Source: an uncultured Eubacteriales bacterium (GTDB lineage Bacteria; Bacillota; Clostridia; Oscillospirales; Oscillospiraceae). From it: a DNA stretch of 64,000 nt. Positions 17,481 to 41,649 of this stretch are shown here, piece by piece. The notes below the pieces were generated by a model. That model was not told the DNA's origin. It searched no databases and saw nothing but the letters and a program-made list of their open reading frames with translations. The position numbers were made by a program, and so were the translations under genes. Each line of letters starts with the position of its first letter. The first letter of the stretch is position 1. The stretch covers positions 17,475-81,474 of the forward strand of contig UROG01000002.1 in assembly GCA_900549485.1 (NCBI GenBank), in the 5' to 3' direction.

Positions 17481-19052
17481 TCAGTTTCTACTGAAATGCA
17501 GCTTTTTAAGTTGGTGGGGCTGTGGAGGCTCTGTATGAACACCAGAGGCAGAGCCGCTATCCCCTTTCAGAAACTCTGTGACAACACGATAATTATTGCC
17601 GTCTCCATCAGTGCCGGTGAAGTTGTACTCAATCTCTATCCGGTCATCCCATAGCCTGATGGCCTTTACCATAGTTCGGAGCAGTTCCTTGCGATAAGCT
17701 TGGTTGTCAGGCGTACCATTACGCAGCTTTTCTAAATAGAACCGCATACGTTCACCATCGACCGGCTCTTCAAACATGGCCTTTCCGAGAGCAATGCTTC
17801 TTTCAAGGTCGTGTATTTCCGTTTCCAGCTCTTGCATTCTTGCAGATGTTGTCTCATTGAATATGCCGGCTTCTATTGCTTTCATGATATTATCCAGCGC
17901 CTTTTTCCGGGATGAAAGCTCTTCCTCCATCACCGGCACATCCGATGTTTCCTGCGCTTGCTTTTTCAGCTCAATATATCCAGAAACAAGCCAGTCTGTC
18001 ACATCTGCCCGCGACAGGCAGGCGCGCGTCAGATCCACGACGAACTGCTCTATAAAATCCCTACGGACATTATGCTTTGTGCAGCCGTCATTCCCGCGGC
18101 TTTTACAGGTGTAATAGTAGTGAAGAGTTCCGTTCCGACTCGTCCCAGCATACCCGACCATGGGAGAGCCGCATTCCCCACAATATAGCTTGCCGGTAAG
18201 CAGATAATCAGAATTAGATTTGCGCTTTGCGCCCTCGCTATTTAGCCCTTCCTGAAGCTTACGTTGCACAGCGTAAAAAACCTCCTCACTTATTATCGCG
18301 GGAACACCGCCAACGACTCGTACACCAGAATGCTCATATATTCCGATGTATCTTTCGTTCCTCAGCATACGATTAAACGAGTTTTTGTTGAAAGGCTTAC
18401 GTGTTTTTGTTAGAATCCCTCTGTCGTTGAGACTGCGAATAATATCAGCATAGGGAACATCATCCACAACTTTGGAAAAGATCTCCCGCACTATTGCGGC
18501 GCGCGGCTCGTCAATGGCATATTTGCCATCCTCGCCTTTTTTATAACCATACGGGAGAGAACCGTTCACCTTGCACTCGGCGGCATTGTCTTTCAGCCCT
18601 CGCCTGATATCCTCGGCCATGTTCTCAGAATAAAACTGATTGACGTTCATCATTGTTCGCAAAGCAAAGCGGCCTGCCGCTGTGTTCCCAAACTCTTCTT
18701 TGGCATAGAGCGTTTTTATGCCAAAGCTATCGAGCCGGGATTCATATTGCAATGCATTCAGCATATTACGGGAAATTCGGTTAGACTTATAGGCAATCAC
18801 AACATCGAACTTGCGTTTTTCAGCATCGCGCATAAGCCGCTGAAACTCATTGCGCCGGTCAGTACGGCCAGAAATGGCTTTGTCTGCGTATATGCCAACA
18901 ACAGAAATGCCGGTGGTCACGGCAAAGGCTGTGCATTCCTCTATCTGCTGTTCTATACTTTCTTCTTTTTGGCTGTGAGAAGAATACCGCGCGTATATTA
19001 CACCGGTGATTATCAAATTGTCTGACTTCTTTTTATACTTCTGCGAAGCCAT
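17481..19052 (-). CDS. large serine recombinase (phage integrase)
   Basis: Resolvase-type N-terminal catalytic domain (VIYARYSSHSQ...RISR), recombinase domain, zinc-ribbon (CGECGSPM...C) and coiled-coil. AGGAGG RBS before the ATG at 19050-19052. The stop codon lies inside a hairpin. Confidence 0.85.
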   Translation of the reverse strand: MASQKYKKKSDNLIITGVIYARYSSHSQKEESIEQQIEECTAFAVTTGISVVGIYADKAISGRTDRRNEFQRLMRDAEKRKFDVVIAYKSNRISRNMLNALQYESRLDSFGIKTLYAKEEFGNTAAGRFALRTMMNVNQFYSENMAEDIRRGLKDNAAECKVNGSLPYGYKKGEDGKYAIDEPRAAIVREIFSKVVDDVPYADIIRSLNDRGILTKTRKPFNKNSFNRMLRNERYIGIYEHSGVRVVGGVPAIISEEVFYAVQRKLQEGLNSEGAKRKSNSDYLLTGKLYCGECGSPMVGYAGTSRNGTLHYYYTCKSRGNDGCTKHNVRRDFIEQFVVDLTRACLSRADVTDWLVSGYIELKKQAQETSDVPVMEEELSSRKKALDNIMKAIEAGIFNETTSARMQELETEIHDLERSIALGKAMFEEPVDGERMRFYLEKLRNGTPDNQAYRKELLRTMVKAIRLWDDRIEIEYNFTGTDGDGNNYRVVTEFLKGDSGSASGVHTEPPQPHQLKKLHFSRN

Positions 19053-19065
19053 ATAGCCTCCTTGC

Positions 19066-19686
19066 TCAGATGCCGAGCAACTGCTTCTTTTTGGCTGTAA
19101 ATTCTTCTTCGGTAAGCACACCTTCATCAACGAGCTGCTTGAGGGCGCGCAAATCATTTATTGTTGGAACCGCTATATCGGGCTGGCAAGCCGGAGCGGG
19201 ATTACTGTTCCAGTTGGCAACCTGCTTTTCGTAGATTCCTGCGAGTTCTGCGTATTCAGGCTTGTAGACTGCGGTCATTTCACTGCCGAACCCCACACCA
19301 AAGCCACCAATATCAACGAAAGAATCGCTCCCTTTCTTGAGCTTGATGGTTATCATTCCGTTTGACATGAACGAAGGTTTTTTGTTTGAGAAAGATGCGA
19401 TGCTTTGAATAGGTATAGTCGTGTTCTTTTTCTTTTCGATAAAAATCAAACTGCTGCTTGTCAACTTTAGTGCTTTCGGCGTAATGCAGGGAAGCTCGGG
19501 CAAATCTCCGGACGGGATTTTACTCGTGTGCGTGGCATATGCCCCCGCACTTTCTCCACGCGAAACACGTACAGCTTCCTCGCCAACGTAAATATGATCT
19601 GCCGCTCTTGCACACGCTTGACATAGTCCTTGCTTGGATATTTCTGCGGCCGAAATTCTTTTGCCGCACTTCTCACATATAGGCAT
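19066..19686 (-). CDS. zinc-ribbon / PH-like (DUF4429-like) / SHOCT-domain protein
   Basis: N-terminal CxxC...CxxC, central beta-rich region, C-terminal SHOCT-like LTEEEFTAKKKQLLGI. Located between the integrase and the repressor. Confidence 0.45.
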   Translation of the reverse strand: MPICEKCGKRISAAEISKQGLCQACARAADHIYVGEEAVRVSRGESAGAYATHTSKIPSGDLPELPCITPKALKLTSSSLIFIEKKKNTTIPIQSIASFSNKKPSFMSNGMITIKLKKGSDSFVDIGGFGVGFGSEMTAVYKPEYAELAGIYEKQVANWNSNPAPACQPDIAVPTINDLRALKQLVDEGVLTEEEFTAKKKQLLGI

Positions 19687-28077: not shown

Positions 28078-28366
28078 AAAAGGATACTGCTGGCTTTGCG
28101 GACGAAACGGCGCGCAAGACCCACTTGACAGGCATCACATATTCGGCGGCGCATATAGAGACAAATCCGAAAAATACGGGCTTGTTGTAATGCTCTGCCA
28201 TGATAGTTGCCACATATTCGGCAAGTATGCCGTACACAGAAACGCCGATACAATGCGGGAACTTCGGCAATATGGGCAGCAGATAGCAATGGAACGCTTC
28301 GGCTGGACGATAGAGGACTTCCGCAGAGAATTCGGAAAAAACTATTTGGAGGATAAATATGTTTGA
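28070..28366 (+). CDS. hypothetical protein with HNH-like Cys/His motif
   Basis: CWLCG...RHHIFGG...CHDSCH arrangement. Confidence 0.35.
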   Translation: MSEKGYCWLCGRNGAQDPLDRHHIFGGAYRDKSEKYGLVVMLCHDSCHIFGKYAVHRNADTMRELRQYGQQIAMERFGWTIEDFRREFGKNYLEDKYV

Positions 28367-29870
28367 AAATACGACAAACAGTCAGATGGTGTATCTGAGC
28401 ATAGACGAACTTTTCCCTCATCCCGATAACCCCCGCAGGGAACTTGGAGATCTGACGGAGCTTGCAGACAGCATTAAGCAGAACGGCGTTCTTCAGAATC
28501 TGACCGTTGTTCCCCGTATGGCCACAAGTGAGCTTACCGCTGAGTCTTGTCAGCAGGGTTATACCGTAATCATCGGCCATCGCCGTTTAGCTGCCGCAAA
28601 GCTCGCCGGGCTGAGTAAACTGCCCTGTGTCGTTATGGAAATGACCGAGAAAGAGCAGATTCAGACAATGCTGGTAGAGAACATGCAGCGCTCAGATTTG
28701 ACCGTCTATGAAGAAGCGCAGGGCTTTCAGATGATGCTTGATCTCGGCGAGACGGTTGAGACTATCGCAGAAAAATCCGGCTTTTCACAGTCCACTGTGC
28801 GCCGCCGCGTGAAGCTGCTTGACTTGGACAAGGATAAATTTAAGCGAGCTGAGAGCCGCGGCGCGACGCTGGAAGACTATGCCGCCCTCGACAAGGTCAA
28901 AAATACAGACACCAAGAATCAGGTGCTCGATACCATAGGAACGCCGAATTTTCAGAATGAACTCAAAAAGGCTCTGGCTGAACAGCGGTATCTTGAACGC
29001 CGTGATGAATGGCTCAATGTTATAAAGACCTTTGCTGTTGAAAATGCAAATTGTGAGATTTCTACGCACAAATACATCTGCAATTATGGCAGGTGGAATC
29101 TGTCTGCCGAGGTCAAAATCCCGGATGACGCTGACAAAGTCAAATATTATTACACAGTCAGCAGTATGCAGATAGACATCTACCGCGACAAAGATGATGC
29201 CCGTGAGGACGCAGAGCGTGCAAAGCGCGAGGAAGAGCGCCGCCAGAGTGAACAGATCGGATATGGGTTTGAGAGCATTACAAGCGCGCACTTCGAGCTC
29301 CGTTCCGAGTTTGTAAAAGGTCTGAGCAACGCAGTCTGCAAGAAGCACATGAAGGAAATCAGCTCCTTTGCAATGAAAGTGCTTTGGCTGATGTCCAGCG
29401 GCGGATATACCCATCCGAAAATTGACGCAAAGCTTTGCGCATCGTGCCTCAATGTGAAGATAGAGGGAGACTACACGGATGACGAATTCTCCCTTGAAGA
29501 TGAAACTGGATTTGTGAGCGCGTCAGAGGCTATGCCTGAAAAGCTCATTCTTTGCATGATATATTCCGCTGCTGACGGACGAGGCAAGGGCTATTGGTGC
29601 CGCAACTGGAAAGACGGCAAGTTTGCCTATGGGCATAAAGAAAACGAAATGCTCACAAGCATATATGAGTTGCTTGAAGCGCTTGGATATGAGGTATCCG
29701 ACGAAGAAACGCTTATGCGGACTGGCTGCGCTGACATTTTCGAGCTGTATTGCAACGACGATACCCCGGCTATGGAAAGCAACGAGCTTGACGAGAAAGA
29801 TGATAACGACTTCGATGACGCTATTCGGGAAAAGCTCAAGGATACTGTCGGTGATGTCGATGGAGTATAA
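28359..29870 (+). CDS. ParB/Srx-like nuclease domain protein
   Basis: N-terminal ParB motif IIGHRRLAAA preceded by LSIDELFPHPDNPR. Long C-terminal extension. Confidence 0.65.
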   Translation: MFENTTNSQMVYLSIDELFPHPDNPRRELGDLTELADSIKQNGVLQNLTVVPRMATSELTAESCQQGYTVIIGHRRLAAAKLAGLSKLPCVVMEMTEKEQIQTMLVENMQRSDLTVYEEAQGFQMMLDLGETVETIAEKSGFSQSTVRRRVKLLDLDKDKFKRAESRGATLEDYAALDKVKNTDTKNQVLDTIGTPNFQNELKKALAEQRYLERRDEWLNVIKTFAVENANCEISTHKYICNYGRWNLSAEVKIPDDADKVKYYYTVSSMQIDIYRDKDDAREDAERAKREEERRQSEQIGYGFESITSAHFELRSEFVKGLSNAVCKKHMKEISSFAMKVLWLMSSGGYTHPKIDAKLCASCLNVKIEGDYTDDEFSLEDETGFVSASEAMPEKLILCMIYSAADGRGKGYWCRNWKDGKFAYGHKENEMLTSIYELLEALGYEVSDEETLMRTGCADIFELYCNDDTPAMESNELDEKDDNDFDDAIREKLKDTVGDVDGV

Positions 29871-31233
29871 AGAGTTTCTTGAACGCAAAGCGCAGACGAT
29901 TCCCTGCTGTGGTTTCACCTTTCAGAAAGCCGAAATGAACCACAATTTGTTTGACTGGCAGAAAGACATCGTTTCATGGGCGCTGAAAAAAGGCAAAGCG
30001 GCGCTTTTTGAAGACTGCGGTCTTGGCAAGACAATACAGCAGCTGGAATGGTGCAGCATCGTTTCCGAGTACACAGGAATGCCGACCGTGATTCTTGCAC
30101 CGCTGGCCGTTTCCCGGCAGACAAAGAAAGAAGGACTCAAGTTCGGATATGAGGTCAACATCTGCCGCAGCCAGAAAGATGTAAAGCCCGGTATAAACAT
30201 ATCGAATTATGAAATGATCGAGCATTTCAACCTCTCGACGTTCGGCGGAGTTGTTCTCGATGAAAGTTCAATCCTGAAGAATTACAGCGGAGAACTGCGC
30301 ACACAGATTATTGAGTCGTGCAAAGGGACAGCCTTCAAGCTGTCCTGCACGGCGACGCCAGCCCCGAATGATTATATGGAGATCGGCAATCAGGCAGAGT
30401 TTTTGGGCGTGATGACACGCTCTGAAATGTTGGCAACCTTTTTTGTACACGACGGCGGGGAAACAAGCAAATGGCGGTTGAAAGGCCATGCGCAGAATGA
30501 TTTCTGGGAATGGCTTGCAAGCTGGGCCGTGGTTCTCACTACTCCGGCAGATCTCGGCTATGACGGGTCACAATATGTGCTCCCGGAGCTGAATATTCAG
30601 TATGTCGAAGTGCCGTCGGACCTGCCGTTCGCAGCTACACTATCGGAGCGCAGGGAGGCGCGCAGAAAAAGTCTTGATTCCAGATGTGCCGCTGCCGCGA
30701 GGCTCGTTGAAAAAGAGCCGAACGCGCAATGGCTTATGTGGTGCGATCTGAATGACGAGGCCGATAAGCTGTGCAGCATCGTGTATGGCGCGCGTGAAGT
30801 ACGAGGTTCTGACAGCTCCGACAGAAAAGATGTGCGCCTCACTGCCTTTACGGAGGGCTTGATACGTCGGCTTGTCACCAAGCCCAGCATTGCCGGATTC
30901 GGTCTGAATTGGCAGAAGTGTCACAACATGATTTTTGTCGGCCTTTCCGACAGCTATGAAATGCTGTATCAGGCAATTCGCCGGTGCTGGAGATTCGGGC
31001 AGAAGCAGCCCGTAAATGTCTATATTGTCATTTCTCAGGCGGAAGGAGCTGTAAAAGAGAACATCATCCGCAAAGATGAACAGTGCAAGGCCATGATTGC
31101 CGAAATGGTCAAACACACAAAAGACATTCTGGCAGCAGATATAAAGGCCACTGTCAGAATGACAGACTTATACGAGCCAACGGTTGATATGACAACTCCA
31201 TCATGGCTCATTGAAGGAGGATACGCAGCATGA
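29854..31233 (+). CDS. SNF2/DEAD-like superfamily-2 helicase
   Basis: Walker A LFEDCGLGKT, DExx box VVLDESS, helicase C-terminal motifs (FGLNWQ...QAIRRCWRFGQ). Confidence 0.7.
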   Translation: MSMEYKEFLERKAQTIPCCGFTFQKAEMNHNLFDWQKDIVSWALKKGKAALFEDCGLGKTIQQLEWCSIVSEYTGMPTVILAPLAVSRQTKKEGLKFGYEVNICRSQKDVKPGINISNYEMIEHFNLSTFGGVVLDESSILKNYSGELRTQIIESCKGTAFKLSCTATPAPNDYMEIGNQAEFLGVMTRSEMLATFFVHDGGETSKWRLKGHAQNDFWEWLASWAVVLTTPADLGYDGSQYVLPELNIQYVEVPSDLPFAATLSERREARRKSLDSRCAAAARLVEKEPNAQWLMWCDLNDEADKLCSIVYGAREVRGSDSSDRKDVRLTAFTEGLIRRLVTKPSIAGFGLNWQKCHNMIFVGLSDSYEMLYQAIRRCWRFGQKQPVNVYIVISQAEGAVKENIIRKDEQCKAMIAEMVKHTKDILAADIKATVRMTDLYEPTVDMTTPSWLIEGGYAA

Positions 31234-32117
31234 AAGTATTAGGCCAGAAAAGCGGTGAAAACTGGGTGCTGTACAACGGCGATTCATGTGAGATCCTTGT
31301 CGGCATACCGACCGCCAGCATTCACTATTCGATTACATCTATCCCGTTTGCGTCGCTGTACACTTACTCAAATAGCGAAAGAGACCTCGGAAACAGCAGA
31401 AACTATGGCGAATTTGCAGAACATTATCAGTACCTCGGCAAGGAATGGTACAGAGTGATGATGCCCGGCCGCTTGGTGTCTATCCACTGCATGAATCTTC
31501 CCGCTATGAAAGAGCGGGATGGTTTTATCGGGGTGAAAGATTTCCGAGGCGATGTGATTCGATGGATGCAGACTTGCGGTTTTATCTTTCACAGCGAAGT
31601 GTGCATATGGAAAAATCCCGTTGTAGAAATGCAGCGCACAAAGGCTCTCGGCCTCCTGCATAAACAGATTCGCAAGGACAGCGCAATGAGCAGAATGGGC
31701 ATCCCCGATTACATAGTCACATTCAGAAAGCCGGGGATGAATCCTGAGCCTCTGGAGCATACGCACGAGAATTATTCTGTTGACCATTGGCAGCAGGTCG
31801 CGTCCCCGGTTTGGGATGAGTATCCCGCTCCTGTGTGGTGGGACATCAATCAGAGCGCGACTCTCCAGCGCAAGAGCGCCAGAACAGAAAAGGATGAAAA
31901 GCACATCTGCCCCTTGCAGCTTCCGGTCATTGAAAGATGCGTTGAGCTGTGGAGCAAAGAGCATGAAATAGTCCTCGACCCGTTTGACGGTATCGGCTCA
32001 ACAGGATACCAGGCACTCAAGATGGGGCGGCGCCATGTAGGGATAGAGCTGAAGGAGAGCTATTTCAGGCAGGCTGCACTAAATCTTGAAGCTGCGGAGC
32101 GGGAGGCGCGGGCATGA
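31230..32117 (+). CDS. DNA methyltransferase (N6-adenine/N4-cytosine, beta class)
   Basis: Catalytic SIPF ((D/S)PP(Y/F)-like) motif followed by the AdoMet motif VLDPFDGIGSTG, an order typical of phage ParB-associated methyltransferases. Confidence 0.8.
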   Translation: MKVLGQKSGENWVLYNGDSCEILVGIPTASIHYSITSIPFASLYTYSNSERDLGNSRNYGEFAEHYQYLGKEWYRVMMPGRLVSIHCMNLPAMKERDGFIGVKDFRGDVIRWMQTCGFIFHSEVCIWKNPVVEMQRTKALGLLHKQIRKDSAMSRMGIPDYIVTFRKPGMNPEPLEHTHENYSVDHWQQVASPVWDEYPAPVWWDINQSATLQRKSARTEKDEKHICPLQLPVIERCVELWSKEHEIVLDPFDGIGSTGYQALKMGRRHVGIELKESYFRQAALNLEAAEREARA

Positions 32118-32587: not shown

Positions 32588-33127
32588 ATGCGTGAATATA
32601 TGTCCTGTGCCGGCACTGAAATGAGCGGGGGCAATCAGGTGTATATTCATTACGGTTCAAAGCAGTTTGATATAAGCAAATTTGAACCTATACGAAATTG
32701 GTGGAATAAGCCGCACGGAGGGTTATGGGCAAGCCCTATAAATGCCGATTATGGTTGGAAAAGATGGAATGCAGAAAGCCACTATAGAGTGTGTTCCGAA
32801 GAAAACTCATTTCGCTTTACTCTGACGCCTGACGCCGTTGTATACTGCATTGACAGCGAATCAAAGGCGCTGGGTCTGCCGAGCCTACCTTGGCCTTTTC
32901 CGGATATCAAATACCCAAGCACAAGAACCTTTGACTTTGAAAGGATTTTGCATGCAGGCATTGACGCTATCGAACTCAAGCTTTCTACTGATAGGCAGCT
33001 ATATTGGGTGATGTATGGATGGGATTGTGACTGTATCCTGATCCTTAATCCGGATGTCATCGTCCCGCTTGACACCGCCGCCGAACGAGCCGCCAATAAA
33101 CGCGCAGCATTGGATTGGGGGTACTGA
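32588..33127 (+). CDS. hypothetical protein
   Basis: 179 aa with a GAGGTG RBS. Confidence 0.4.
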   Translation: MREYMSCAGTEMSGGNQVYIHYGSKQFDISKFEPIRNWWNKPHGGLWASPINADYGWKRWNAESHYRVCSEENSFRFTLTPDAVVYCIDSESKALGLPSLPWPFPDIKYPSTRTFDFERILHAGIDAIELKLSTDRQLYWVMYGWDCDCILILNPDVIVPLDTAAERAANKRAALDWGY

Positions 33128-33129
33128 CT

Positions 33130-33453
33130 ATGGCTGCTATTAGGTTGATAAAGCGTGCCAAATACGCTGGTGATGTCCATGCAGAACTAATAAAGTCGGG
33201 GTGGGATCTGGATGCAGCGACTTTGTTTGTTGAGAACATTCCAGATGCTGATGTTGCGCCAGTGTTGCATAGCTATTGGGAAGAATACGCTTGTTCGCAA
33301 TTTATGGGGGTGGATGAATGGGGCGAGCCGAAATGGCGTGATGGCAGATTTTACATCTGCCACAATTACAAATGCCGGAGAAAAACAGGTGTAAAAAGCA
33401 ACTACTGCCCCAACTGCGGCGCGAGAATGGACGGTGTCGAAAATGAAGTGTGA
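33130..33453 (+). CDS. zinc-ribbon protein
   Basis: CHNYKCRRK...CPNCG. Confidence 0.35.
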   Translation: MAAIRLIKRAKYAGDVHAELIKSGWDLDAATLFVENIPDADVAPVLHSYWEEYACSQFMGVDEWGEPKWRDGRFYICHNYKCRRKTGVKSNYCPNCGARMDGVENEV

Positions 33454-33736
33454 AAAATGCGGCCATGAGTTAGGTGCATTAAGTGTCGATATGTTCAACT
33501 ACGATGGCAGCGACAGACTCGTTGACGTTGCATTCCGCGAGGAAGAGGAAAACGCGGTAGTAATCGACACTGCGCAAAACTGGACTGGGTATGAGCTTTC
33601 CGAAGAAGAAAGGTCAGACACAATCCACTGCCCGAACTGTGGAAGATTCCCATTTGAGAACACTGAAATCCACGTTTATGATGTGATTAGGCTGGTAATG
33701 TTCAGAAAGGACGGTAAAACAGATGGAGAAGCTTAA
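33443..33736 (+). CDS. zinc-ribbon protein
   Basis: MKCEKCGH...HCPNCG. Confidence 0.35.
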   Translation: MKCEKCGHELGALSVDMFNYDGSDRLVDVAFREEEENAVVIDTAQNWTGYELSEEERSDTIHCPNCGRFPFENTEIHVYDVIRLVMFRKDGKTDGEA

Positions 33737-33971
33737 ACCTTGCCCATTCTGCGGTGGGAAAGCCCAATTTTTAGTAAAAACCCACATGGAGCGTGGGATT
33801 ACAAGGGGGTATTCCTTTGGCGTATACTGCACAAAATGCGACATTACTACGTCAAAAACAAATTATGGCATTGAGTTTCAGCTTAACGGTAACGGCGAAA
33901 TAGAAATAACACTGGATGAACGTTTATTGGCAGTCGAAGCATGGAATAGGAGGCCTGACAATGCAGGATGA
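33723..33971 (+). CDS. Lar-family restriction alleviation protein
   Basis: N-terminal LKPCPFCGGKA motif diagnostic of the Lar family. About 80 aa. Confidence 0.6.
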   Translation: MEKLKPCPFCGGKAQFLVKTHMERGITRGYSFGVYCTKCDITTSKTNYGIEFQLNGNGEIEITLDERLLAVEAWNRRPDNAG

Positions 33972-34254
33972 AAAGTGTACAAATTGTGTAGAACCATGCC
34001 CGATGGCTGACATGGCGCATGAAGCCGCTAAAGGCAGAATGTACGCAACGAATGAGTTTATCAGCCTCTTGAAAAAAGTCGAGTGTGGCCAGCTCGTGGA
34101 GGTCGTGCGGTGTAAGGGCTGTAAGCATCACAGAATATTTCTGAAACGAGATATGTGTGCGAAAAACGCTCAAGTGCTTGCTGGGCATGAAGTGGGCTTG
34201 ACAGCCACAAACCCCGACGATTTTTGCAGCTACGGAGAAAAAGCCTATGAATGA
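33961..34254 (+). CDS. hypothetical cysteine-rich protein
   Basis: GGAGG RBS. CTNC...CP...C..CKGCKHH. Confidence 0.4.
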   Translation: MQDEKCTNCVEPCPMADMAHEAAKGRMYATNEFISLLKKVECGQLVEVVRCKGCKHHRIFLKRDMCAKNAQVLAGHEVGLTATNPDDFCSYGEKAYE

Positions 34255-34560: not shown

Positions 34561-34807
34561 AATACGCAGTTGCTCAGATTGCAGGAAGAAAGATGTCGGC
34601 ACAATGCTTTACGATATGCTTTCATGGCAGCGTGTATCGCTCATGCTGGCTTATGACCGAGAGCGGGATATCATCATCGTGGATGAAACCATGCTGATGA
34701 ACGCTATATGCATGGTAAACCCCGCTCAAGAGCCAAAGCATATTGAGCTTGGCGACGCCAGAGGAATGTGGAAGAAAAGGCTGGTGAATCTCGAAGATGG
34801 GCGATAA
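34541..34807 (+). CDS. hypothetical protein
   Basis: About 88 aa ORF. Confidence 0.3.
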   Translation: MPELGIEIRSCSDCRKKDVGTMLYDMLSWQRVSLMLAYDRERDIIIVDETMLMNAICMVNPAQEPKHIELGDARGMWKKRLVNLEDGR

Positions 34808-35348
34808 GAGCAAAGATTATATCATTCGGCTGGCGGCCGAAGTCGGCGCAAAAACCGCTCTTAAAGAGTTCGAGGCCGAGATGGTCAAATCCAAGAATGA
34901 GCGCTCAGATCGGAGACTTCGCAACACCCGGCTGCTGCTGCGAAACTACCGCATGTTTAAGGCTCACGCCGAGAATGCTATATATGATGCGCAGGACGTG
35001 GACGAAGACGCCTATGACATTATCGACCTCATGTCTGACCGCTGGCAGGACAGTGATGCTATTGTCGAAAGCATAAAACAATCCGTCGCCCGGACAGTTA
35101 CGATAGTATCGCACATCGACGCTATGCTCCATCTCTATGAAGTCTACTGCACGCAGTCAGGCAGCGCAGAGGAGCTGCGCCGTTGGGTGGTAATCAACGG
35201 CCTGTACATAAAAGAACCGCCCATGACTGTCAAGGAGTTGGCCAATGATAACTTCGTCACTGAGCGGACGATTTACAGAGATATAGACATTGCCAGCGAG
35301 CGCATAGCTGCACTTATTTTCGGCATCGACGGAATAAAGAAAAGCTGA
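34797..35348 (+). CDS. putative phage late-gene transcriptional regulator (sigma-70 region-4-like / ArpU-like)
   Basis: C-terminal HTH TVKELANDNFVTERTIYRDIDIASERIAAL resembles sigma region 4. Positioned just before the packaging genes. Confidence 0.45.
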   Translation: MGDKSKDYIIRLAAEVGAKTALKEFEAEMVKSKNERSDRRLRNTRLLLRNYRMFKAHAENAIYDAQDVDEDAYDIIDLMSDRWQDSDAIVESIKQSVARTVTIVSHIDAMLHLYEVYCTQSGSAEELRRWVVINGLYIKEPPMTVKELANDNFVTERTIYRDIDIASERIAALIFGIDGIKKS

Positions 35349-35399
35349 TGTCAAAAACGTGTCAGTGACAATTCAATATGAATGTGTTATTATGACACT

Positions 35400-35470
35400 T
35401 GTAAAATCTTAATCATAGCCTGAACTCCCGATTTTTGAGGTCTTCGCCCAGACCGCTGAGAAAGTCGGGA
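35400..35470 (+). terminator. hairpin plus U-tract upstream of the late operon
   Basis: aactcccga(t)ttt...aaagtcgggagtt stem followed by ttttactttt. Confidence 0.35.
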
Positions 35471-35546
35471 GTTTTACTTTTGGCACAAAGGAGGGCAGCA
35501 ACTGACCCGCTCCTTATAGTTTGATGAACTTTAAGGAGGAAATCTT

Positions 35547-36545
35547 GTGTTTGCACAAATCAAAGAGAAATTCAAAGCCAATCCCATTGAGTATTATTCG
35601 CTGAGCATCGCTGCTTCTTGGGCCGGTGCCGGCTCTCTCATGAACTCCACAACGCTGGCTCAAACGCTCGGCGTAGTTCCAGCGCTTATCTGGTGTGCAT
35701 TCAACACTGTTGCCTGTATGGTGTTCGGTCTGATTATTTGGAAGCTGCCGACTGTCCGGGAAATAATGCGGATGCGTATCAGCCGCATTGTTCTGGCCTT
35801 ATTCAGCATCTTTCAAATTTGGCTGTGCATGACTGCAATGAATGAAGCATGGGCATCTACTGCGGTAGGTATGGTGGGAGGCATGGTTATTACCTATGCC
35901 TTCACAACTGGATTCATAATCGCATTGTACCGGCGCGGCATTATTGCAAATATCATGACTGACAACGGCGGGATGTACATTATTTATGCCCTTGTGGTTG
36001 TCCTGTCGCTTTCATCCTTATACATCGCCGGATGGAATTTTGATGGTCTTTCCAAAGGGCTTGAGACGGCAAATCTGATGCAGGGCTTGTACAAGGGACT
36101 CTTGCTACTCCCAGGACCGTTTACTTATCCATACTTTTATAAGCTGCTCGATTATAACGAGGGCAATGATGAGGGCGTCAGCAGAACAGACATGACTCAG
36201 GCTTTCATAAATGGTGGTATCGGTTTTGGCGTATATCTTCTGTTCGCGTTCTCGCTGGTATTTACGACGTTCTCGCCGGTGCTTAACGTCTGCAAAGCCG
36301 TGCTATTATCTGCGTTGGCAATATCGACGCTGTCAACATTCATCTATTCAGAGTTTGCTGTATTCGGGCAGAAAGTAGGCCTTGCAATAAATGTGTTTGC
36401 TCTTCTGTTTTGGATAGCAGTTGCCCCGCTCGGTGTGATGGGCGTCTGGACGCTCATGGCGGAGAGCCGGGTATATCTTGTCGTTGCAATGCTTGTTGCT
36501 GCGGTTATAAAGAGACGGCATGATATGCGGGAGGCGGCACTATGA
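35547..36545 (+). CDS. polytopic integral membrane protein (unknown function)
   Basis: GTG start 7 nt after AAGGAGG. 332 aa, about 9 to 10 TM helices. No recognisable family. Confidence 0.55.
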   Translation: MFAQIKEKFKANPIEYYSLSIAASWAGAGSLMNSTTLAQTLGVVPALIWCAFNTVACMVFGLIIWKLPTVREIMRMRISRIVLALFSIFQIWLCMTAMNEAWASTAVGMVGGMVITYAFTTGFIIALYRRGIIANIMTDNGGMYIIYALVVVLSLSSLYIAGWNFDGLSKGLETANLMQGLYKGLLLLPGPFTYPYFYKLLDYNEGNDEGVSRTDMTQAFINGGIGFGVYLLFAFSLVFTTFSPVLNVCKAVLLSALAISTLSTFIYSEFAVFGQKVGLAINVFALLFWIAVAPLGVMGVWTLMAESRVYLVVAMLVAAVIKRRHDMREAAL

Positions 36546-37192
36546 TGCAAGTCGTAACAAAGAGCCTCGCCGACCTGCACGAAGCCCCGAAGAATGTGCG
36601 CAAGCATACGGATAAGCAGATAAAAGAATATGTGCGGTCACTTGAAATGTTCGGCCAGATAAAGCCTATCGTCATAGACGAACACGGAGAGATCATAGCT
36701 GGTAATGGCCTGTTTCTTGCACTTCGCGCTATGGGGCGGGAGACATGCGAATGTTACATTGTTTCCGGGCTGACCTCCGCACAGAAGAAAAAGCTCATGC
36801 TCGCCGACAACCGAGTATATGAGCTTGGCATTACAGATGTTGGCGCATTCGAGGAAATCATCCTTGACCTTGACGGAGATATAGACGTTCCCGGGTGGGA
36901 TGAAGATCTCCTGTCAATGATGAATGCGACAGCCGATGATGTTGATGACGCTGTCCTCGACTATGGCGATTTTGAAGCGTCGGCTATCACACGCCTCTCT
37001 GACAAAAAGCCGCCTGCACCGGCACGCAAAGACAGCATTGCGCATCAGCCCGAAGAGCCGCCCACGTCAGCGCGTGCAGCGGAACATATAAATACCTACC
37101 ATGAGCCGGAAACGCTCACGAGCGACGCGCCTGAGGCGTTGCAACGCAGATATATCATCTGCCCGAAATGTGGTGAGAAGATATGCCTGTAA
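36542..37192 (+). CDS. ParB-like nuclease domain protein (IbrB-like)
   Basis: N-terminal ParB/Srx region (LADLHEAPKNVRKH...IVIDEHGEIIAGNGLFLA). C-terminal zinc ribbon CPKCGEKIC. Confidence 0.55.
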   Translation: MMQVVTKSLADLHEAPKNVRKHTDKQIKEYVRSLEMFGQIKPIVIDEHGEIIAGNGLFLALRAMGRETCECYIVSGLTSAQKKKLMLADNRVYELGITDVGAFEEIILDLDGDIDVPGWDEDLLSMMNATADDVDDAVLDYGDFEASAITRLSDKKPPAPARKDSIAHQPEEPPTSARAAEHINTYHEPETLTSDAPEALQRRYIICPKCGEKICL

Positions 37193-38316
37193 AAAAGTTT
37201 GAAAGCACCGTCAGCGTCCTCGATGCGGCGAAGAATCGTATCAAAAATCTCTTCAATACCGGCTGTAAAGTGTATCTGTCTTTTTCATGCGGGAAAGACA
37301 GTCTTTGCATGGCAAGCATTACGCTTGACCTTATAATCTCCGGGGAGATAAACGGCGCGCAGCTGACGGTCATCTTTGTTGATGAAGAGGGGCTGTATAA
37401 ATCTATGGTCGATGCCGCTTTGCGATGGCGCAAGAAATTCATGGCGGTCGGCGTGCCGTTTATATGGCTGTGCCTCCCGCTGAAGCAGGTATCTGTGCTT
37501 GACCGCCTGGCATCGTCCGAAAGCTGGATAACATGGGAGCCGGGAAAAGAAGATTCTTGGATCAGACAGCCGCCACCGTTCGCTGTCATGCAGCATCCGG
37601 TCCTGCGTTATCCCGGGGAAATGAACTATCAAACGTTCTGCCGCAGAGCGTTTTCCGATGGTATGCAGATGATAGGCTTGCGAACGTCAGAATCGTTGAC
37701 GCGGTTGCAGAGCGTCACAAATCTTGACCTTACAAGGGTAACGCCGGGTGGCTCATTCTATCCAATCTACGACTGGAAAGACAATGATGTGTGGCTCTAT
37801 ATCAAGGAGCGCAAGCTTGAATTCCCAGAAATATATATTCGCCTGTATGAGGCCGGCGTGCAGAAACGAAACCTGCGCCTGTGCGCGTTCTTCGGAGACT
37901 GCGGCACACAGGGTTTGCGGTGGATTGCAGAAACCGATAACGAGCTATGGCAGCGCATAGAAAAGCGAGAGCCGAATGCTTACCTTGTGCTGCTCTACTG
38001 GGACAGTGAAATGTTCCGCAGGCAATCCCGCAAGCGCCGTGAGCTTGAATCGGATGGGCAGAAAAAAGACTATCGCGCTCTTTGCAAGGACATTCTCTTC
38101 CTCAATACCGACAAATACACAATAGCGCCAGACACCAAGGCAAAGCTTGATGGATGGCGCTCTTTGTTTATCAAGACCTATGGGATTGCACAGGAAAAGC
38201 ACTATAAGCGGATGTATGAGGGGCTTCTTTATGGCGACCCCAAATCACGGGTGCTGAGAATCCTTTGGACAAACATCTTCATCGACTACAATTCTGATAA
38301 GGCGGTGAAGAGATGA
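37183..38316 (+). CDS. phosphoadenosine phosphosulfate (PAPS) reductase-family protein (IbrA-like, PP-loop ATPase)
   Basis: PP-loop SFSCGKDS near the N-terminus. About 377 aa, a length typical of phage PAPS-reductase / DUF3440 proteins. Confidence 0.75.
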   Translation: MPVKKFESTVSVLDAAKNRIKNLFNTGCKVYLSFSCGKDSLCMASITLDLIISGEINGAQLTVIFVDEEGLYKSMVDAALRWRKKFMAVGVPFIWLCLPLKQVSVLDRLASSESWITWEPGKEDSWIRQPPPFAVMQHPVLRYPGEMNYQTFCRRAFSDGMQMIGLRTSESLTRLQSVTNLDLTRVTPGGSFYPIYDWKDNDVWLYIKERKLEFPEIYIRLYEAGVQKRNLRLCAFFGDCGTQGLRWIAETDNELWQRIEKREPNAYLVLLYWDSEMFRRQSRKRRELESDGQKKDYRALCKDILFLNTDKYTIAPDTKAKLDGWRSLFIKTYGIAQEKHYKRMYEGLLYGDPKSRVLRILWTNIFIDYNSDKAVKR

Positions 38317-38837
38317 AAGAAATGGATTTGTTCGCACCTCTGGCATCGCTGCAATGGGTAGAACGTGACCGGCTGCACGCGAATGATTATAACCCCAATA
38401 AAGTATCCGAGGACAATCTTCAACTGCTGATGCAATCAATCGAAACGAACGGATGGACGTTGCCTATCGTAGTGCGCCCAGACTTCACTATCATTGATGG
38501 CTTCCATCGCTGGACCGTTGCCGGTCGTGAGCCGCTCAAAACGCAGCTCGGCGGCAAAGTGCCGGTTGTCATTGTCGAACACGATGACGCGAGTGATGAC
38601 ATATATGGCACGATCACTCATAACCGGGCAAGAGGTACGCATTTGCTTGAGCCTATGAAAGCCATTGTGAAAAGGTTGCTGGATGACGGCAAAACCGTAG
38701 ATGAAATTGGTAAACAGCTTGGCATGAAACCGGAAGAGGTATTCAGACTTTCGGATTTCACCCGAGAAGAATTCCTCGACATGATGACAAAGGGCGTAAA
38801 TGGGTACAGCCGCGCCGTTGTGTACAAGAAAATATGA
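38313..38837 (+). CDS. ParB/Srx-like nuclease domain protein
   Basis: IIDGFHRW (DGxHR) ParB N-terminal motif. 174 aa. Confidence 0.65.
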   Translation: MKEMDLFAPLASLQWVERDRLHANDYNPNKVSEDNLQLLMQSIETNGWTLPIVVRPDFTIIDGFHRWTVAGREPLKTQLGGKVPVVIVEHDDASDDIYGTITHNRARGTHLLEPMKAIVKRLLDDGKTVDEIGKQLGMKPEEVFRLSDFTREEFLDMMTKGVNGYSRAVVYKKI

Positions 38838-38844
38838 GAGGAGC

Positions 38845-39027
38845 ATGGCAGATGTGAAAACAACGGAGACTATTCAGGTATTCGTAAAGATTGATAAGGG
38901 TAGAACCGTCTGCATCTGCCATGCAGCGCGCAAGCGCTGTGGTTGCGCATGCGAGCGCTGCGAGGTCACACGAGATAAGTTCTCTGAGTGGCGGCGTGTT
39001 ATGCGGCGCGACAAGTATGGAAAGTGA
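38845..39027 (+). CDS. hypothetical cysteine-rich protein
   Basis: GAGAGGAG RBS. CICHAARKRCGCACERC. Confidence 0.3.
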   Translation: MADVKTTETIQVFVKIDKGRTVCICHAARKRCGCACERCEVTRDKFSEWRRVMRRDKYGK

Positions 39028-39044
39028 TGGGCGGTGAGCATCGC

Positions 39045-39347
39045 ATGAAGAAGTATAGTCGCAGCACCGGCAAGCGGACACTCAAGGAGGATGGATTCTA
39101 TCACACTCCAGCATGGAGACGTATTCGATTGGTGGTGCTTCAGCGCGATCATTATCAGTGTCAGCTCAGACTTTCTAAAAACTGCACAAAAATTGCAACA
39201 ACCGTGCATCATATCAAAGCGCTTGAGGATTACCCTGAGTTTGCTCTTGACATAGACAACCTTACGAGCTGCTGTTACTCATGCCATGAGCTTACCAAGG
39301 TACGCGAGCGCGACCATCCATCTGGTGTACGAATTATAAAGATATAG
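39045..39347 (+). CDS. HNH endonuclease
   Basis: YQCQ...HHIKAL...N...CCYSCH HNH motif, immediately upstream of the terminase small subunit. Confidence 0.7.
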   Translation: MKKYSRSTGKRTLKEDGFYHTPAWRRIRLVVLQRDHYQCQLRLSKNCTKIATTVHHIKALEDYPEFALDIDNLTSCCYSCHELTKVRERDHPSGVRIIKI

Positions 39348-39515: not shown

Positions 39516-39893
39516 ATGACAGAAGAAAAAAACTCGGCAGAAGAAAAAAGCATGGTGATAAAAGTTGACCTCAATGCTCAGGCAAGGGAGATTCTTGAGA
39601 GAGCCACGGCAAAGGGTGTTGAGCATAGCTTCATGTTTGTCACGGCGTTCAAAAGGTATCAGGAGTTAATCTCCCATCTGCAAAAATTACAGGAAAGCAT
39701 AAAAAAAGATGGCATGCTCGTGAAAAAGGAGTATGTCAAAGGCCGCGCAAACATTTATGTGAATCCGGCAGTAAACGCTTATAATGCGACATCCGCAGCA
39801 GCGGATAGGACAGCGCAGCTCCTGATGCGATATATAGTTCAGCCGCTGAAAGATGAGAACGAGGACGACGGCGACGCATTCGATGTTTTTTAA
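39516..39893 (+). CDS. phage terminase small subunit (P27 family)
   Basis: 125 aa with the P27-family pattern (LNAQAREILERAT...YVNPAVNAYN). GAGG RBS. Confidence 0.65.
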   Translation: MTEEKNSAEEKSMVIKVDLNAQAREILERATAKGVEHSFMFVTAFKRYQELISHLQKLQESIKKDGMLVKKEYVKGRANIYVNPAVNAYNATSAAADRTAQLLMRYIVQPLKDENEDDGDAFDVF

Positions 39894-39909: not shown

Positions 39910-41649
39910 ATGATAAACCTCGAAGAGCTCCATGTCGCAAGCATCATCCAGTCGTCTAAAGCATTTCAGTTTGCAGCTGATGTCGTAAATGGGAAAATCA
40001 TATCCGGGAAACGCCGAAAGCAAGCCTGCCAGAGATTCATTGACGAACTTGAAAAATCGGCAGTTGACCCGTCATATCCATGGGAATTCAGCATTGAAAG
40101 AGCATACCGCCCGATAGAATTTATCGAGCGGTTTCTGACGCCGACAAAGAGCACGTATACGCGCATGGAACTGCTCCCGTGGCAGCATTTCGTTGAAGCC
40201 AATATGTACGGTTGGATATCCAGAAAAACAGGATATCGTAGATTCCGCGAAGCCCTCGTAATCGTTGGACAAGGAAATGGCAAATCTACCATGATAGCCG
40301 GGAATGCGGCGTATGCTCTTACGAAAGACGGTGAGCGCGGCGCTGAAGTCTATTGCTTGGCAAATTCAAAAGACCAAGCAAGGATTATTTTCAATGAGTG
40401 CTCAGCGCAGGTTAAAAACAGTCGGACTTTGTCTAAGCACGTTCGTATTACGAAGCAGGGCGTGTTTTATGATAAAACGAACAGCAAATTTCAGCCGCTC
40501 GCGTCCGACAGCAAAAACCTTGACGGTCGAAATGTGCACATGGGCGTTTTCGATGAAATACAAGAATTCCGCGATTATAAGCTGATTAACGTTATCAAAG
40601 GTAAAATTAAAAAGAGAAAACAGCCCTTGATAATATACATCACAACTCTTGGCACGGTTATTGATGGCCCACTGATGGATTTTTATATTCTCGGCGGTCA
40701 GATTCTCGACGACACGGGAGCTATTGCTCAGCGCGCCGCAGATCGCATGTTCGTTTATATCGATGAAATAGACGAAAATGACGACGTTGAAGATTATACC
40801 TGTTGGGGCAAAGCGAATCCCTCACTTGGAGCGTTGCTCGATATTGAGGACTTAAAAGACGAATGGGAACGAGTAAAAACCATTCCGAGCGAGAGAAACA
40901 ATTTCATAAATAAGCAGCTCAACGTGTTCACAATGGTGGATGAGTTGAGCTTTCTTGATGTAAGGACGATATGTAAGAACGACCGTGTATATGACGTTGA
41001 AAATTTGCATGGAGCGGTCTGCTACGGCGGATTTGACCTGGCAGAGACAGAAGATTTTACTTCAGCCTGTCTTGAGTTTCCTTTGCCCGATAACAGTTTC
41101 TTTGTGTTGGAGCATTCATGGGTACCCGAAAAGAAAGTAAAGTTTGACCATGAAAAGCTCGACTGGCAGACGCTCGTGGAGCGAGGCTGGCTTACCATAG
41201 TGCCGGGCGAATATGTGGACTATATCTACATTTTTGACTGGTTCGTTGAAATGCAGAAGCTTTACCGCATAGATTCTATTGGTTTTGACCCAGCAAAAGC
41301 GTTCATGATGGTACAGAAAATGCGAGAACACGGATTTGTCTTGAATGATGTACGTCAAGGCGAACTGACACTGACAGGACCGTTGGACGATCTCAAAGAA
41401 CACTTCCTCGATGGGAGCATAGTTCACAACAACAATGCCATGTTCAAATGGTATTTGAGCAATGTAAAGCTCACAAAGCGCTCGGCAAATGCCACATATC
41501 TTCCGACCAAGCTTTCAAAATACCGCAAAATTGACGGATTTGCGGCTTTGCTGGACGCTCACACGGAGTTTTTGCGCAAACATCCAACACAGATTCCACC
41601 AGACAAAGAATTGACCACGGTCATCAATTTACAGAATTTGAAGGGGTGA
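39910..41649 (+). CDS. phage terminase large subunit
   Basis: 579 aa. Walker A-like VIVGQGNGKST, Walker B MGVFDEIQEF, C-terminal RNaseH-like nuclease. Confidence 0.85.
   Translation: MINLEELHVASIIQSSKAFQFAADVVNGKIISGKRRKQACQRFIDELEKSAVDPSYPWEFSIERAYRPIEFIERFLTPTKSTYTRMELLPWQHFVEANMYGWISRKTGYRRFREALVIVGQGNGKSTMIAGNAAYALTKDGERGAEVYCLANSKDQARIIFNECSAQVKNSRTLSKHVRITKQGVFYDKTNSKFQPLASDSKNLDGRNVHMGVFDEIQEFRDYKLINVIKGKIKKRKQPLIIYITTLGTVIDGPLMDFYILGGQILDDTGAIAQRAADRMFVYIDEIDENDDVEDYTCWGKANPSLGALLDIEDLKDEWERVKTIPSERNNFINKQLNVFTMVDELSFLDVRTICKNDRVYDVENLHGAVCYGGFDLAETEDFTSACLEFPLPDNSFFVLEHSWVPEKKVKFDHEKLDWQTLVERGWLTIVPGEYVDYIYIFDWFVEMQKLYRIDSIGFDPAKAFMMVQKMREHGFVLNDVRQGELTLTGPLDDLKEHFLDGSIVHNNNAMFKWYLSNVKLTKRSANATYLPTKLSKYRKIDGFAALLDAHTEFLRKHPTQIPPDKELTTVINLQNLKG

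Follow-up and report, generated by a model that had tools for sequence, protein, structure and literature searches.

The IbrA/IbrB family, in which a PP-loop protein assigned to the PAPS-reductase family is paired with a ParB-fold protein, is already known but functionally unsolved, and its annotations contradict one another, ranging from 'prophage co-activator' through 'PAPS reductase auxiliary metabolic gene (AMG) for sulfur metabolism' to 'partition protein'. In this work, we describe a member of this family in a prophage of an uncultured Eubacteriales bacterium, carried by 64,000 nucleotides (nt) of contig UROG01000002.1 (GenBank assembly GCA_900549485.1, positions 17,475 to 81,474). This whole stretch is hereafter called the window; coordinates are those of the window, and features lie on the + strand unless otherwise indicated. 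An earlier note on this DNA had recognized a ParB / PAPS-reductase / ParB trio and had called the IbrA/IbrB type poorly understood, a description that agrees with the published literature found, which gives annotation-level mentions and no established function.

Related folds are better documented in other settings. In the Dnd and Dpd systems of DNA modification, ParB-fold proteins act as partners (PMC12839542, PMC10853773), and ParB-fold domains fused to phage methyltransferases bind nucleoside triphosphates (NTPs) (PMC12704722). With regard to the PP-loop protein, PAPS-reductase genes occur in Aca-controlled anti-defence operons (PMC13551039), and a PAPS-domain::Dam fusion of a Vibrio phage confers escape from the Dnd system (bioRxiv 10.1101/2021.05.05.442762). 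In the window, the trio belongs to a larger unit which also comprises a membrane transporter and a structured leader RNA; this transporter-coupled, leader-controlled architecture of gut Oscillospirales phages is new, and it was not found in the literature searched. We tentatively read the unit as a cassette that would modify phage DNA, and weigh this reading below against several alternatives.

The IbrA/IbrB cassette of the window

The trio consists of the open reading frames (ORFs) for ParB1 (216 amino acids (aa), 36542-37192), an IbrA-like PP-loop protein (377 aa, 37183-38316) and an IbrB-like ParB2 (174 aa, 38313-38837), which appear in the ORF listing exactly where the earlier note had placed them, upstream of HNH and terminase genes. 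That note started the unit at position 36542, a boundary that has to be moved: the gene of a multi-pass membrane protein with a predicted LeuT fold (332 aa, 35547-36545) overlaps the start of ParB1 and is co-conserved with the trio. The transporter, ParB1, IbrA-like and IbrB genes are translationally coupled, their junctions consisting, in order, of an ATGA overlap, a 10-nt overlap and a second ATGA overlap, and a purine-rich ribosome-binding site precedes each of the three cassette gene junctions. Counts of intrinsic terminators and promoters inside the cassette were not above the shuffled expectation. Besides the coupled transporter, the earlier note had overlooked a second PP-loop enzyme that is optional among related loci, and a conserved leader in front of the transporter gene.

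The conservation of this arrangement was assessed in two samples. The viral sample, of 82 loci, combined those of two cultured Faecalibacterium phages, FP_Taranis and Pioen, with 80 from IMG/VR that had been retrieved through the PP-loop protein. The membrane protein, ParB1, the PP-loop protein and ParB2 were present in about 80 of the 82, among them FP_Taranis and Pioen, which carry the same four-gene block at ~70% nucleotide identity. The upstream helix-turn-helix (HTH) gene and the HNH, TerS, TerL and portal genes were common to only 3-4 of the 82 loci. For the second sample, one genome per species was taken, which gave 198 matches; the best 80 of the 198 were analysed, with identities of 41%-99%. 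These best 80 belong mainly to Oscillospiraceae, Ruminococcaceae, Butyricicoccaceae and Selenomonadaceae, with isolated Lachnospiraceae and Bacteroidales-labelled bins, and a contig of a Butyricicoccaceae genome matches the IbrA-like protein at 99% identity, which makes a host of this family probable for the window. ParB2 was found in 80/80 and ParB1 in 75/80 of these species-level loci. The cassette gene order is kept in about 160 independent loci, far beyond chance, and since it is kept while the flanking regulator and terminase genes differ, the cassette moves as a unit.

A census of architectures covered every locus, about 130 in number, whose upstream sequence reached 3.3 kb or more, and four main types were distinguished. 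The type of the window, in which the membrane protein (MEM) is followed by ParB1, IbrA and IbrB, was found in 76 loci. In 31 others (MEM-PAPS2-ParB1-IbrA-IbrB), a second PP-loop protein with a PAPS_reduct domain, PAPS2 (260 aa; PF01507 at E 4.6e-11; PHROG 424), is intercalated. In 16 further loci, the membrane protein is replaced by a protein of the SSF family (SSF-PAPS2-ParB1-IbrA-IbrB), and two have the latter protein and no PAPS2 (SSF-ParB1-IbrA-IbrB). No transporter-less locus was seen among these related loci. PAPS2, which is absent from the window, thus sits between the transporter and ParB1 in 47 loci, about a third. Examples are L012:2806-3588 and L150:3626-4408, and in the latter the PP-loop reads WSAGKDS, a Gly-to-Ala change. 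Two variant loci were also recorded, one with a ~1.6-kb insertion between IbrA and IbrB (L171:5711-7350), and one in which a truncated second PP-loop gene is directly joined to IbrB, with neither ParB1 nor IbrA (L178:2059-3101); such insertion and deletion variants could inform which cassette genes are dispensable. Fragments of IbrA fused to portal, baseplate-J, SSF or N6_Mtase sequences (P0241, P0245, P0291 and P0361) probably reflect chimeric metagenome assembly or faulty gene calling, and were not used as evidence.

The 377-aa protein matches PHROG 2302 at E 1e-79, and the Pfam family PAPS_reduct (PF01507) at E 1.2e-8, through the C-terminal third of the model only. The SFSCGKDS PP-loop pointed out in the earlier note was confirmed at residues 33-40, and the ATP-pyrophosphatase motifs are in place, with S-x-G-K-D-S and other family-invariant residues retained. 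Across 43 full-length relatives (21-48% identity), the invariant positions are S35, K38 and S40 of the PP-loop, alongside which D39 is conserved, together with D67, E69, W126, G165, E170, S171, R174, W204, Y218, R232 and R262. Cysteines are neither invariant nor nearly so at any position of this alignment. The first Gly of the SGGKDS motif is a Cys in the window, and Ser (73), Cys (45) or Ala (2) among 120 close homologues; given that all 120 carry one of these three residues, the substitution can be regarded as a clade feature rather than a decay mutation. PAPS_reduct is matched by 43/43 of the relatives and DUF3440, the IbrA architecture, by 21/43 (best E 3.5e-52). The Pfam DUF3440 model had no match to the window protein itself; its C-terminal region aligns with that of the relatives, with R262, Y272 and D352 conserved.

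An AlphaFold2 (AF2) model of the protein (pLDDT 91, pTM 0.89) has as Foldseek neighbours over its N-terminal ~225 residues NcsA, PAPS/APS reductases, the GMP synthase ATPPase, FAD synthase, LarE, CysD and TilS. A helical C-terminal domain (residues 240-377) is confidently modelled and had no PDB match in Foldseek. No solved structure of a close relative was found in the PDB, where the best sequence match was CysH 6vpu at E 0.42. An exhaustive search recovered 1,060 representative homologue clusters at E<=1e-3. By blastp, the protein matches the PhiR5_2 protein annotated as IbrA (31% identity, E 2.6e-36) and the IbrA of a Streptococcus thermophilus phage (29%, E 1.5e-34), the IbrA/IbrB comparison being made with proteins so annotated in phages. 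Identities of 31% and 39% to the PhiR5_2 pair identify the PAPS-reductase-like protein as a homologue of IbrA and the second ParB as one of IbrB, as had been proposed for this DNA.

With the PP-loop motifs kept and no conserved cysteine in the family, the 377-aa protein is predicted to be an IbrA-type ATP-pyrophosphatase, and neither a PAPS reductase nor a DndC-like Fe-S enzyme that inserts sulfur. Two explanations are directly affected by this point. The first is that of an AMG, a phage CysH (PAPS reductase) that boosts assimilatory sulfate reduction of the host, a view taken in several virome papers and suggested by the name of the Pfam family as well as by its PHROG category, 'moron, auxiliary metabolic gene'. 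However, the protein scores 16.7 bits with TIGR00434 (cut-off 165.1) and 19 with NF002537 (cut-off 154), the curated cysH/PAPS-reductase models, and far under the cut-off of the CysD model; only a third of the Pfam model is matched, there is no conserved cysteine for the thiosulfonate intermediate, and the protein is always paired with ParB-fold proteins. On the curated cut-offs and the absent catalytic Cys we reject a CysH-type sulfur AMG, which we consider hardly credible; excluding a PAPS reductase or a DndC-type sulfur inserter here corrects an annotation that feeds the 'auxiliary metabolism' statistics of viromes.

The second explanation is a DNA phosphorothioation (PT) pair or mimic, resembling DndC/DndB, SspD or BrxP, that places sulfur marks on phage DNA and so escapes PT-dependent defence. 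The pair shares both its folds with DndC and DndB, a weak BrxP match and the anti-Dnd activity of the phage PAPS-domain fusion point in this direction, and PT systems are common in gut bacteria, although PT synthesis is stated to require a cysteine desulfurase and a DndD/SspC-type ATPase (PMC12914056), neither of which is found in the cassette. PADLOC returned BrxP alone for the IbrA-like protein, as a marginal match (E 7.6e-4) with no significant stretch, and its DndB, DndC and SspD models had no match at E<=0.01. Moreover, with no invariant cysteine the IbrA-like family would have no Fe-S site and no persulfide carrier. A PT function is very unlikely on these grounds, and membership in the Dnd, Ssp or BREX-4 systems was rejected for want of PADLOC support and cysteines.

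The two ParB-fold proteins differ from each other. ParB2 matches Pfam ParB_N (E 6.9e-7) and PHROG 2159 (E 1.7e-69), and displays the motifs NDYNPN, DGFHR and HNRARGTH, with a ParB-type HTH at the C-terminal side. The DGFHR motif, mentioned in the earlier note and located at residues 62-66, aligns with the GERR nucleotide-binding P-motif of ParB 6t1f, one arginine being kept. ParB2 is 39% identical to the IbrB of PhiR5_2 (E 4e-31), 36% to that of S. thermophilus phage CHPC1148, 39% to gp7 of Arthrobacter phage Salgado and 42% to the ParB of Bacillus cereus phage M2 (E range for the four comparisons, 1e-29 to 4e-31), and the E. coli homologue is named 'IbrB-like domain-containing protein' by PGAP. 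It is the most conserved protein of the cassette, 71-88% identical where IbrA drops to 41-45%.

ParB1 matches PHROG 620, 'ParB-like', at E 1.6e-45 and Pfam ParB_N weakly (E 0.008), as well as the N-terminal part of PHROG 498, a DNA methyltransferase (E 1.9e-29), and the PADLOC model MTase_II (E 2.2e-14). Judged by sequence, it has the ParB/Srx fold and belongs to the subfamily that forms the N-terminal part of ParB-DNA-methyltransferase fusions. In 121 unique homologues its motif position holds an invariant GNGL, with no arginine, which in the alignment falls on the GERR P-motif of ParB 7bnk; a variable acidic linker and a C-terminal CPKCGE knuckle follow. The 'C-terminal zinc ribbon' claimed for this protein reduces to that single invariant CxxC knuckle, the position of the third Cys being C, W or E in homologues. 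As for the description of an IbrA/IbrB-type trio, the second ParB is indeed IbrB, but the first represents another subfamily, lacking the nucleotide-binding arginines. In phage Salgado, the corresponding slot holds an orthologue of ParB1 (gp5, 32% identity, E 1e-8). A canonical ParB (partition CTPase) was considered and rejected for both proteins: ParB1 has GNGL, ParB2 scores 28.1 bits with TIGR00180 (cut-off 58.45), and the window ORF listing has no ParA gene adjoining the cassette.

Transporter and leader RNA

The 332-aa membrane protein had no match in Pfam, PHROG or NCBIfam, and no Pfam domain was found among the 120 listed of its 663 homologues. Its AF2 model, built with 48 homologues (pLDDT 78, pTM 0.76), was compared with the PDB by Foldseek, the best match being CHT1/SLC5A7, a member of the sodium/solute symporter family (SSS, TC 2.A.21; E 2.5e-4, TM 0.65), followed by the LeuT-fold proteins LAT1, Nramp, AgcS, AdiC and Mhp1. 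In a divergent clade, the equivalent slot is occupied by a true SSF protein of 460 aa (PF00474 at E 1.1e-22; TIGR00813 at E 2.6e-34). Profile comparison between the two proteins was weak (34% probability, E 4e-4), and both have the first-helix motif SIAA(S/T)W..A.SL. From the modelled fold we conclude that the 332-aa protein is probably a minimal SSS-like secondary transporter of the LeuT-fold / APC superfamily. With respect to the substrate of the transporter, NCBIfam gave a superfamily-level SSS assignment only, similarity to PanF and PutP being far under the cut-off. Salgado gp4 was considered as an equivalent and rejected, as it has no transmembrane (TM) segments, which makes the transporter specific to the gut Clostridia clade.

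A leader of ~160-180 nt precedes the transporter gene in the window and in 54 related loci. In the window, it extends over 35389-35549 according to the covariance-model match. Its elements are the conserved 5' GUAAAAUCUUA; a hairpin that resembles a terminator, U-tract included, at about 35422-35484; the decoy AAAGGAGGG at about 35489-35497; and, at about 35510-35516, a CUCCUU element capable of pairing with the transporter Shine-Dalgarno (SD) sequence (about 35534-35540); the noteworthy promoter-like site is a sigma-70-like match at 35365-35393. Leaders of very different loci have the same elements in the same order: GUAAAAUCCUA; a GC-rich hairpin, then AUUCUUUU; GGGAAGGAGG; a hairpin with the invariant loop GUUNCUCCUU; a third helix around UCGCCAAC; and the true SD. 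The 5' UCCU and the loop CUCCUU are each able to pair with SD-like AAGGAGG elements, so the leader can gate translation, and through its first hairpin, transcription. It may be a riboswitch-like translational/transcriptional switch, or a late-antitermination element.

The covariance model R1, built from 20 related leaders, gave a single match in the window (25.7 bits, E 0.0011). It also matched the 54 related loci, FP_Taranis included, always ending at the transporter start codon. No R1 match was obtained in the E. coli, Streptococcus, Arthrobacter or Bacillus phage loci, and in our sample the leader was found only with the transporter-IbrAB cassette (e.g., L001:4791-4991). RNAalifold predicted 29 pairs on the seed alignment (A3), 22 of them with compensatory changes; 91% of the cells were paired on the predicted structure, against 45-55% in slid controls, and the observed covariation was reached by 0 of 500 shuffles. 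The window leader itself folds with z = -4.0, and is a reduced variant in which helix P3 is absent and P2 degenerate. An exact pattern taken from the leader occurred 12 times in IMG/VR, in 12/12 cases just 5' of the transporter gene. Rfam 15 had nothing relevant in the window leader at E<=10, and at gathering thresholds returned only an unrelated tRNA and a hammerhead ribozyme in 11 related loci; a known riboswitch, preQ1 included, was accordingly rejected. The ribozyme is of type II (RF02276, 51.7 bits, E 1.9e-7) and lies 5' of the cassette of an Oscillospiraceae prophage (L131:1283-1348, +).

Candidate role and genomic setting

The distribution of the family bears on its role. By tblastn, the IbrA-like protein was found in 168 cultured phage records, of Flavobacterium (90), Streptococcus (21), Arthrobacter (12), Bacillus (8), Mycobacterium and others, and the ibrAB DNA of E. 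coli was present in 1,930 of 5,426 complete E. coli genomes (36%). In the phage records examined, the neighbours of the IbrA-like gene vary: IbrB only in E. coli phage PhiR5_2, a SNF2 helicase in the S. thermophilus phage, and DNA methyltransferases on both sides in B. cereus phage M2. In Salgado, the order is ParB (gp5), PAPS (gp6) and ParB (gp7), then a methyltransferase (gp8), an HTH protein and TerL.

We favour, at slightly less than even chance, a late-expressed cassette that imports a precursor and uses it to modify the phage DNA ahead of packaging, so as to counter restriction or other defences. Four lines of evidence suggest this: the resemblance to the DndB/DndC and DpdB/DpdA pairs; the DNA methyltransferases and helicases that adjoin the genes elsewhere; the homology of ParB1 to methyltransferase fusions; and the anti-Dnd PAPS-domain::Dam fusion together with the PAPS-reductase genes in anti-defence operons. 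The cassette is a self-contained, horizontally mobile unit of five parts, namely leader, SSS-type transporter, ParB1, IbrA-like PP-loop enzyme and IbrB, heading the late/packaging block of a temperate siphovirus-type prophage in a gut bacterium of the Butyricicoccaceae/Oscillospirales. Transcription from its own promoter would run through the leader, where the terminator-like hairpin and the sequestered ribosome-binding site of the transporter gene would gate expression in response to late antitermination or to a ligand. The Na+/solute-symporter-like protein would then import a small-molecule precursor. Adenylation with release of pyrophosphate (PPi) is the chemistry common to all PP-loop enzymes, and the IbrA-like enzyme would perform it on a substrate oxygen in an ATP-dependent manner, after which a second nucleophile would displace AMP. 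IbrB, with its arginine-bearing P-motif and HTH, and ParB1 would bring the enzyme to DNA, by analogy with DndB for DndC and DpdB for DpdA, IbrB being a nucleotide-dependent partner. The outcome would be a covalent, non-sulfur mark on the replicated phage DNA just before packaging, protecting it against restriction or defence in the next cell; the location just before terS/terL fits an action at that stage.

Several observations weigh against DNA modification. No modified base has been demonstrated in any cassette-bearing phage, no test of IbrA/IbrB biochemistry was found in the literature, and the cassette has no recognisable nuclease, glycosylase or transferase to complete a base exchange or transfer. 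The Fe-S-free members of the PAPS-reductase family with known chemistry (CysD, FMN adenylyltransferase) act on small molecules, and the transporter is at least as compatible with small-molecule metabolism as with a route to DNA. The sole experimental phenotype of IbrA/IbrB is reportedly the activation of prophage eib genes in E. coli, which the RAST label echoes. ParB1, lacking nucleotide-binding arginines, may be inert, and the window leader is reduced relative to the consensus, with a weak covariance-model match (E about 1e-3).

The main rival, which the transporter and a chemistry like that of CysD or FMN adenylyltransferase would also fit, is a small-molecule pathway not directed at DNA. 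Here, import would be followed by phosphorylation by the ParB/Srx fold, as SerK and SbnI do on serine, and by PP-loop adenylylation, and the product would serve in envelope decoration or superinfection exclusion, in signalling, or in neutralising a host immune signal. The transporter is obligatory in the clade, the second PP-loop enzyme at some loci suggests a multi-step route, FAD synthase and CysD are among the structural neighbours, and a riboswitch-like leader would suit metabolite control; furthermore, ParB-fold proteins that bind ATP, CTP or GTP outside DNA segregation are documented (PMC12704722). On the other hand, IbrB keeps a ParB-type HTH, ParB1 represents the very module known from fusions with DNA methyltransferases, and DNA methyltransferases or helicases are neighbours in unrelated phages; the cassette holds no transferase to use an activated product, and the IbrA/IbrB pairs of other phyla have no transporter. 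On balance, we consider this pathway unlikely.

A bolder version of the DNA-modification reading, possible but doubtful, is a hitherto undescribed, import-dependent DNA hypermodification pathway in gut Oscillospirales phages under the control of a new riboswitch-like leader. In it, one or two cysteine-free PP-loop adenylating enzymes (the IbrA-like protein, with or without the PHROG-424-type one) would activate DNA or the precursor, and the leader would sense the same ligand that the transporter imports, unmasking the transporter ribosome-binding site. If true, this would provide the first biochemical function for IbrA/IbrB, which occur in phages of at least five phyla and in about a third of E. 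coli genomes, and a new DNA modification would bear on phage-host range in the gut, on sequencing and restriction artefacts, and on the supply of new enzymatic tools. The gut-phage version of the pair offers several points of attack: since the transporter is obligatory, there should be an imported substrate that can be identified, the second PP-loop enzyme, though optional, hints at more than one reaction step, the covarying leader RNA can be probed for a ligand, and the presence of the whole unit in the two cultured phages FP_Taranis and Pioen makes the role of IbrA/IbrB directly testable.

Downstream of the cassette lie genes for an HNH endonuclease (38988-39347; PF01844, E 1.6e-6), TerS (39516-39893; Pfam Terminase_4, E 9e-5) and TerL (39910-41649; TerL_ATPase and TerL_nuclease, E 1e-32 to 1e-34), then the portal gene. 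In one related prophage, a tRNA gene stands between IbrB and the HNH and terminase genes (L097:7032-7102, +). The claim that such modules recur next to packaging genes was borne out for the clade of the window, a Taranis-type or window-type terminase being detected next to the cassette in at least 54 of the 80 species-level loci, with two or more terminase types, and for Salgado; it did not extend to the E. coli and Streptococcus phage pairs, which are located elsewhere. Most cassettes precede a Taranis-type terminase, and the window type is shared by only 4/82 viral and 13/80 genome loci. A role as DNA-packaging accessory, in which the terminase would find its pac/cos region marked or nicked by the ParB-like proteins, would account for this position directly 5' of terS/terL, and some ParB/Srx proteins do nick DNA (cited in PMC12839542). 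Nevertheless, the terminases that follow the same cassette are of two or more unrelated types, HNH being present at some loci and absent from others, the E. coli and Streptococcus phage pairs are not near packaging genes, and the PP-loop enzyme, transporter and leader would be left unexplained, all of which makes such a role highly improbable.

Just 5' of the leader, a gene at 34797-35348 encodes a 183-aa HTH protein (PHROG 1558, of unknown function, E 7e-54; HTH_11 weak). Phage FP_Taranis has its 'RinA-like activator' at this place, and the protein may be the late regulator. Being common to only 3 of the 82 viral loci, the gene lies outside the mobile cassette. A legacy annotation bears on this setting, the RAST-type label 'co-activator of prophage gene expression IbrA/IbrB' carried by gp37/gp38 of Taranis and by proteins of other phages, which would make the pair transcription co-activators of prophage (late) genes. 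The HTH of IbrB and the location of the cassette between a putative late regulator and the late genes agree with such a function. Yet the ATP-pyrophosphatase motifs are strictly conserved in more than 1,000 homologues, one would not expect a transcription factor to come with a coupled transporter and a second PP-loop enzyme, the cassette occurs with at least two unrelated late-gene sets, and an epigenetic DNA mark could equally account for an effect on expression; we find the co-activator explanation quite unlikely.

Other features of the prophage were also recorded. The prophage carries three ParB-fold proteins, as the earlier note had counted, the third being a 503-aa protein at 28359-29870 with ParB_N (E 2.4e-16) and HTH_ParB domains; a third ParB is likewise present in FP_Taranis (gp25) and Salgado (gp2). 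A SNF2-like helicase follows (the listed ORFs overlap at 29623-29870), and then a DNA methyltransferase at 31230-32117. Between the latter and the HTH regulator, within 33115-34254, are small ORFs rich in CxxC pairs that resemble small zinc-binding proteins (e.g., 33434-33736 and 33723-33971). The GC content falls from ~0.55 to ~0.47-0.50 where the prophage begins, near 18 kb, and a 558-aa ORF on the - strand at this drop (17481-19157) probably encodes the integrase/recombinase of the prophage and would mark its left attachment end.

Comparison with known systems

The closest described system is IbrA/IbrB of the E. coli 'IbrAB island', which has the same core, a PAPS_reduct PP-loop protein followed by a ParB-fold protein with NxYNPN, DGFHR and HNRARGxH motifs. 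The IbrAB pairs of E. coli and Streptococcus phages differ from the window cassette in having no extra ParB1, SSS-type transporter or leader.

DndB/DndC, and likewise SspD and BrxP, display the same pairing of a ParB/Srx fold with a PAPS-reductase-family PP-loop ATP pyrophosphatase acting on DNA (PMC10853773, PMC12839542). In contrast to DndB/DndC, the window cassette has neither conserved cysteines nor an Fe-S site, and the desulfurase DndA, the DndD/SspC ATPase and DndE are all missing from it. With neither an Fe-S site nor Dnd partners or a PADLOC match, sulfur insertion as in DndC cannot be the chemistry of the cassette.

In the ParB::DNA-methyltransferase fusions (PHROG 498, MTase_II), whose N-terminal ParB domain is homologous to ParB1, a ParB module stands beside a DNA-modifying module, as in the cassette. 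Unlike these fusions, ParB1 is a separate polypeptide with an arginine-less GNGL, and its partner is a PP-loop enzyme and not an S-adenosylmethionine (SAM) methyltransferase. The PAPS::Dam protein of the Vibrio phage likewise ties a phage PAPS_reduct domain to DNA modification, with an anti-defence role shown experimentally. It differs in the fusion to Dam and in the size of its PAPS domain (about 175 aa), which is probably of the PHROG 424 type, the family of the optional PAPS2, whereas the window protein belongs to PHROG 2302.

A similar logic is found in the 7-deazaguanine DNA modification by DpdA/DpdB, where a ParB-like NTPase assists a DNA-modifying enzyme (PMC12839542). The window cassette departs from it in lacking a TGT/DpdA homologue or a queuosine-pathway gene, and in its transporter, which is of the SSS/LeuT type. 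Some phages encode transporters for preQ-type precursors, and the import of a precursor for DNA modification, as proposed here for the window cassette, would parallel these.

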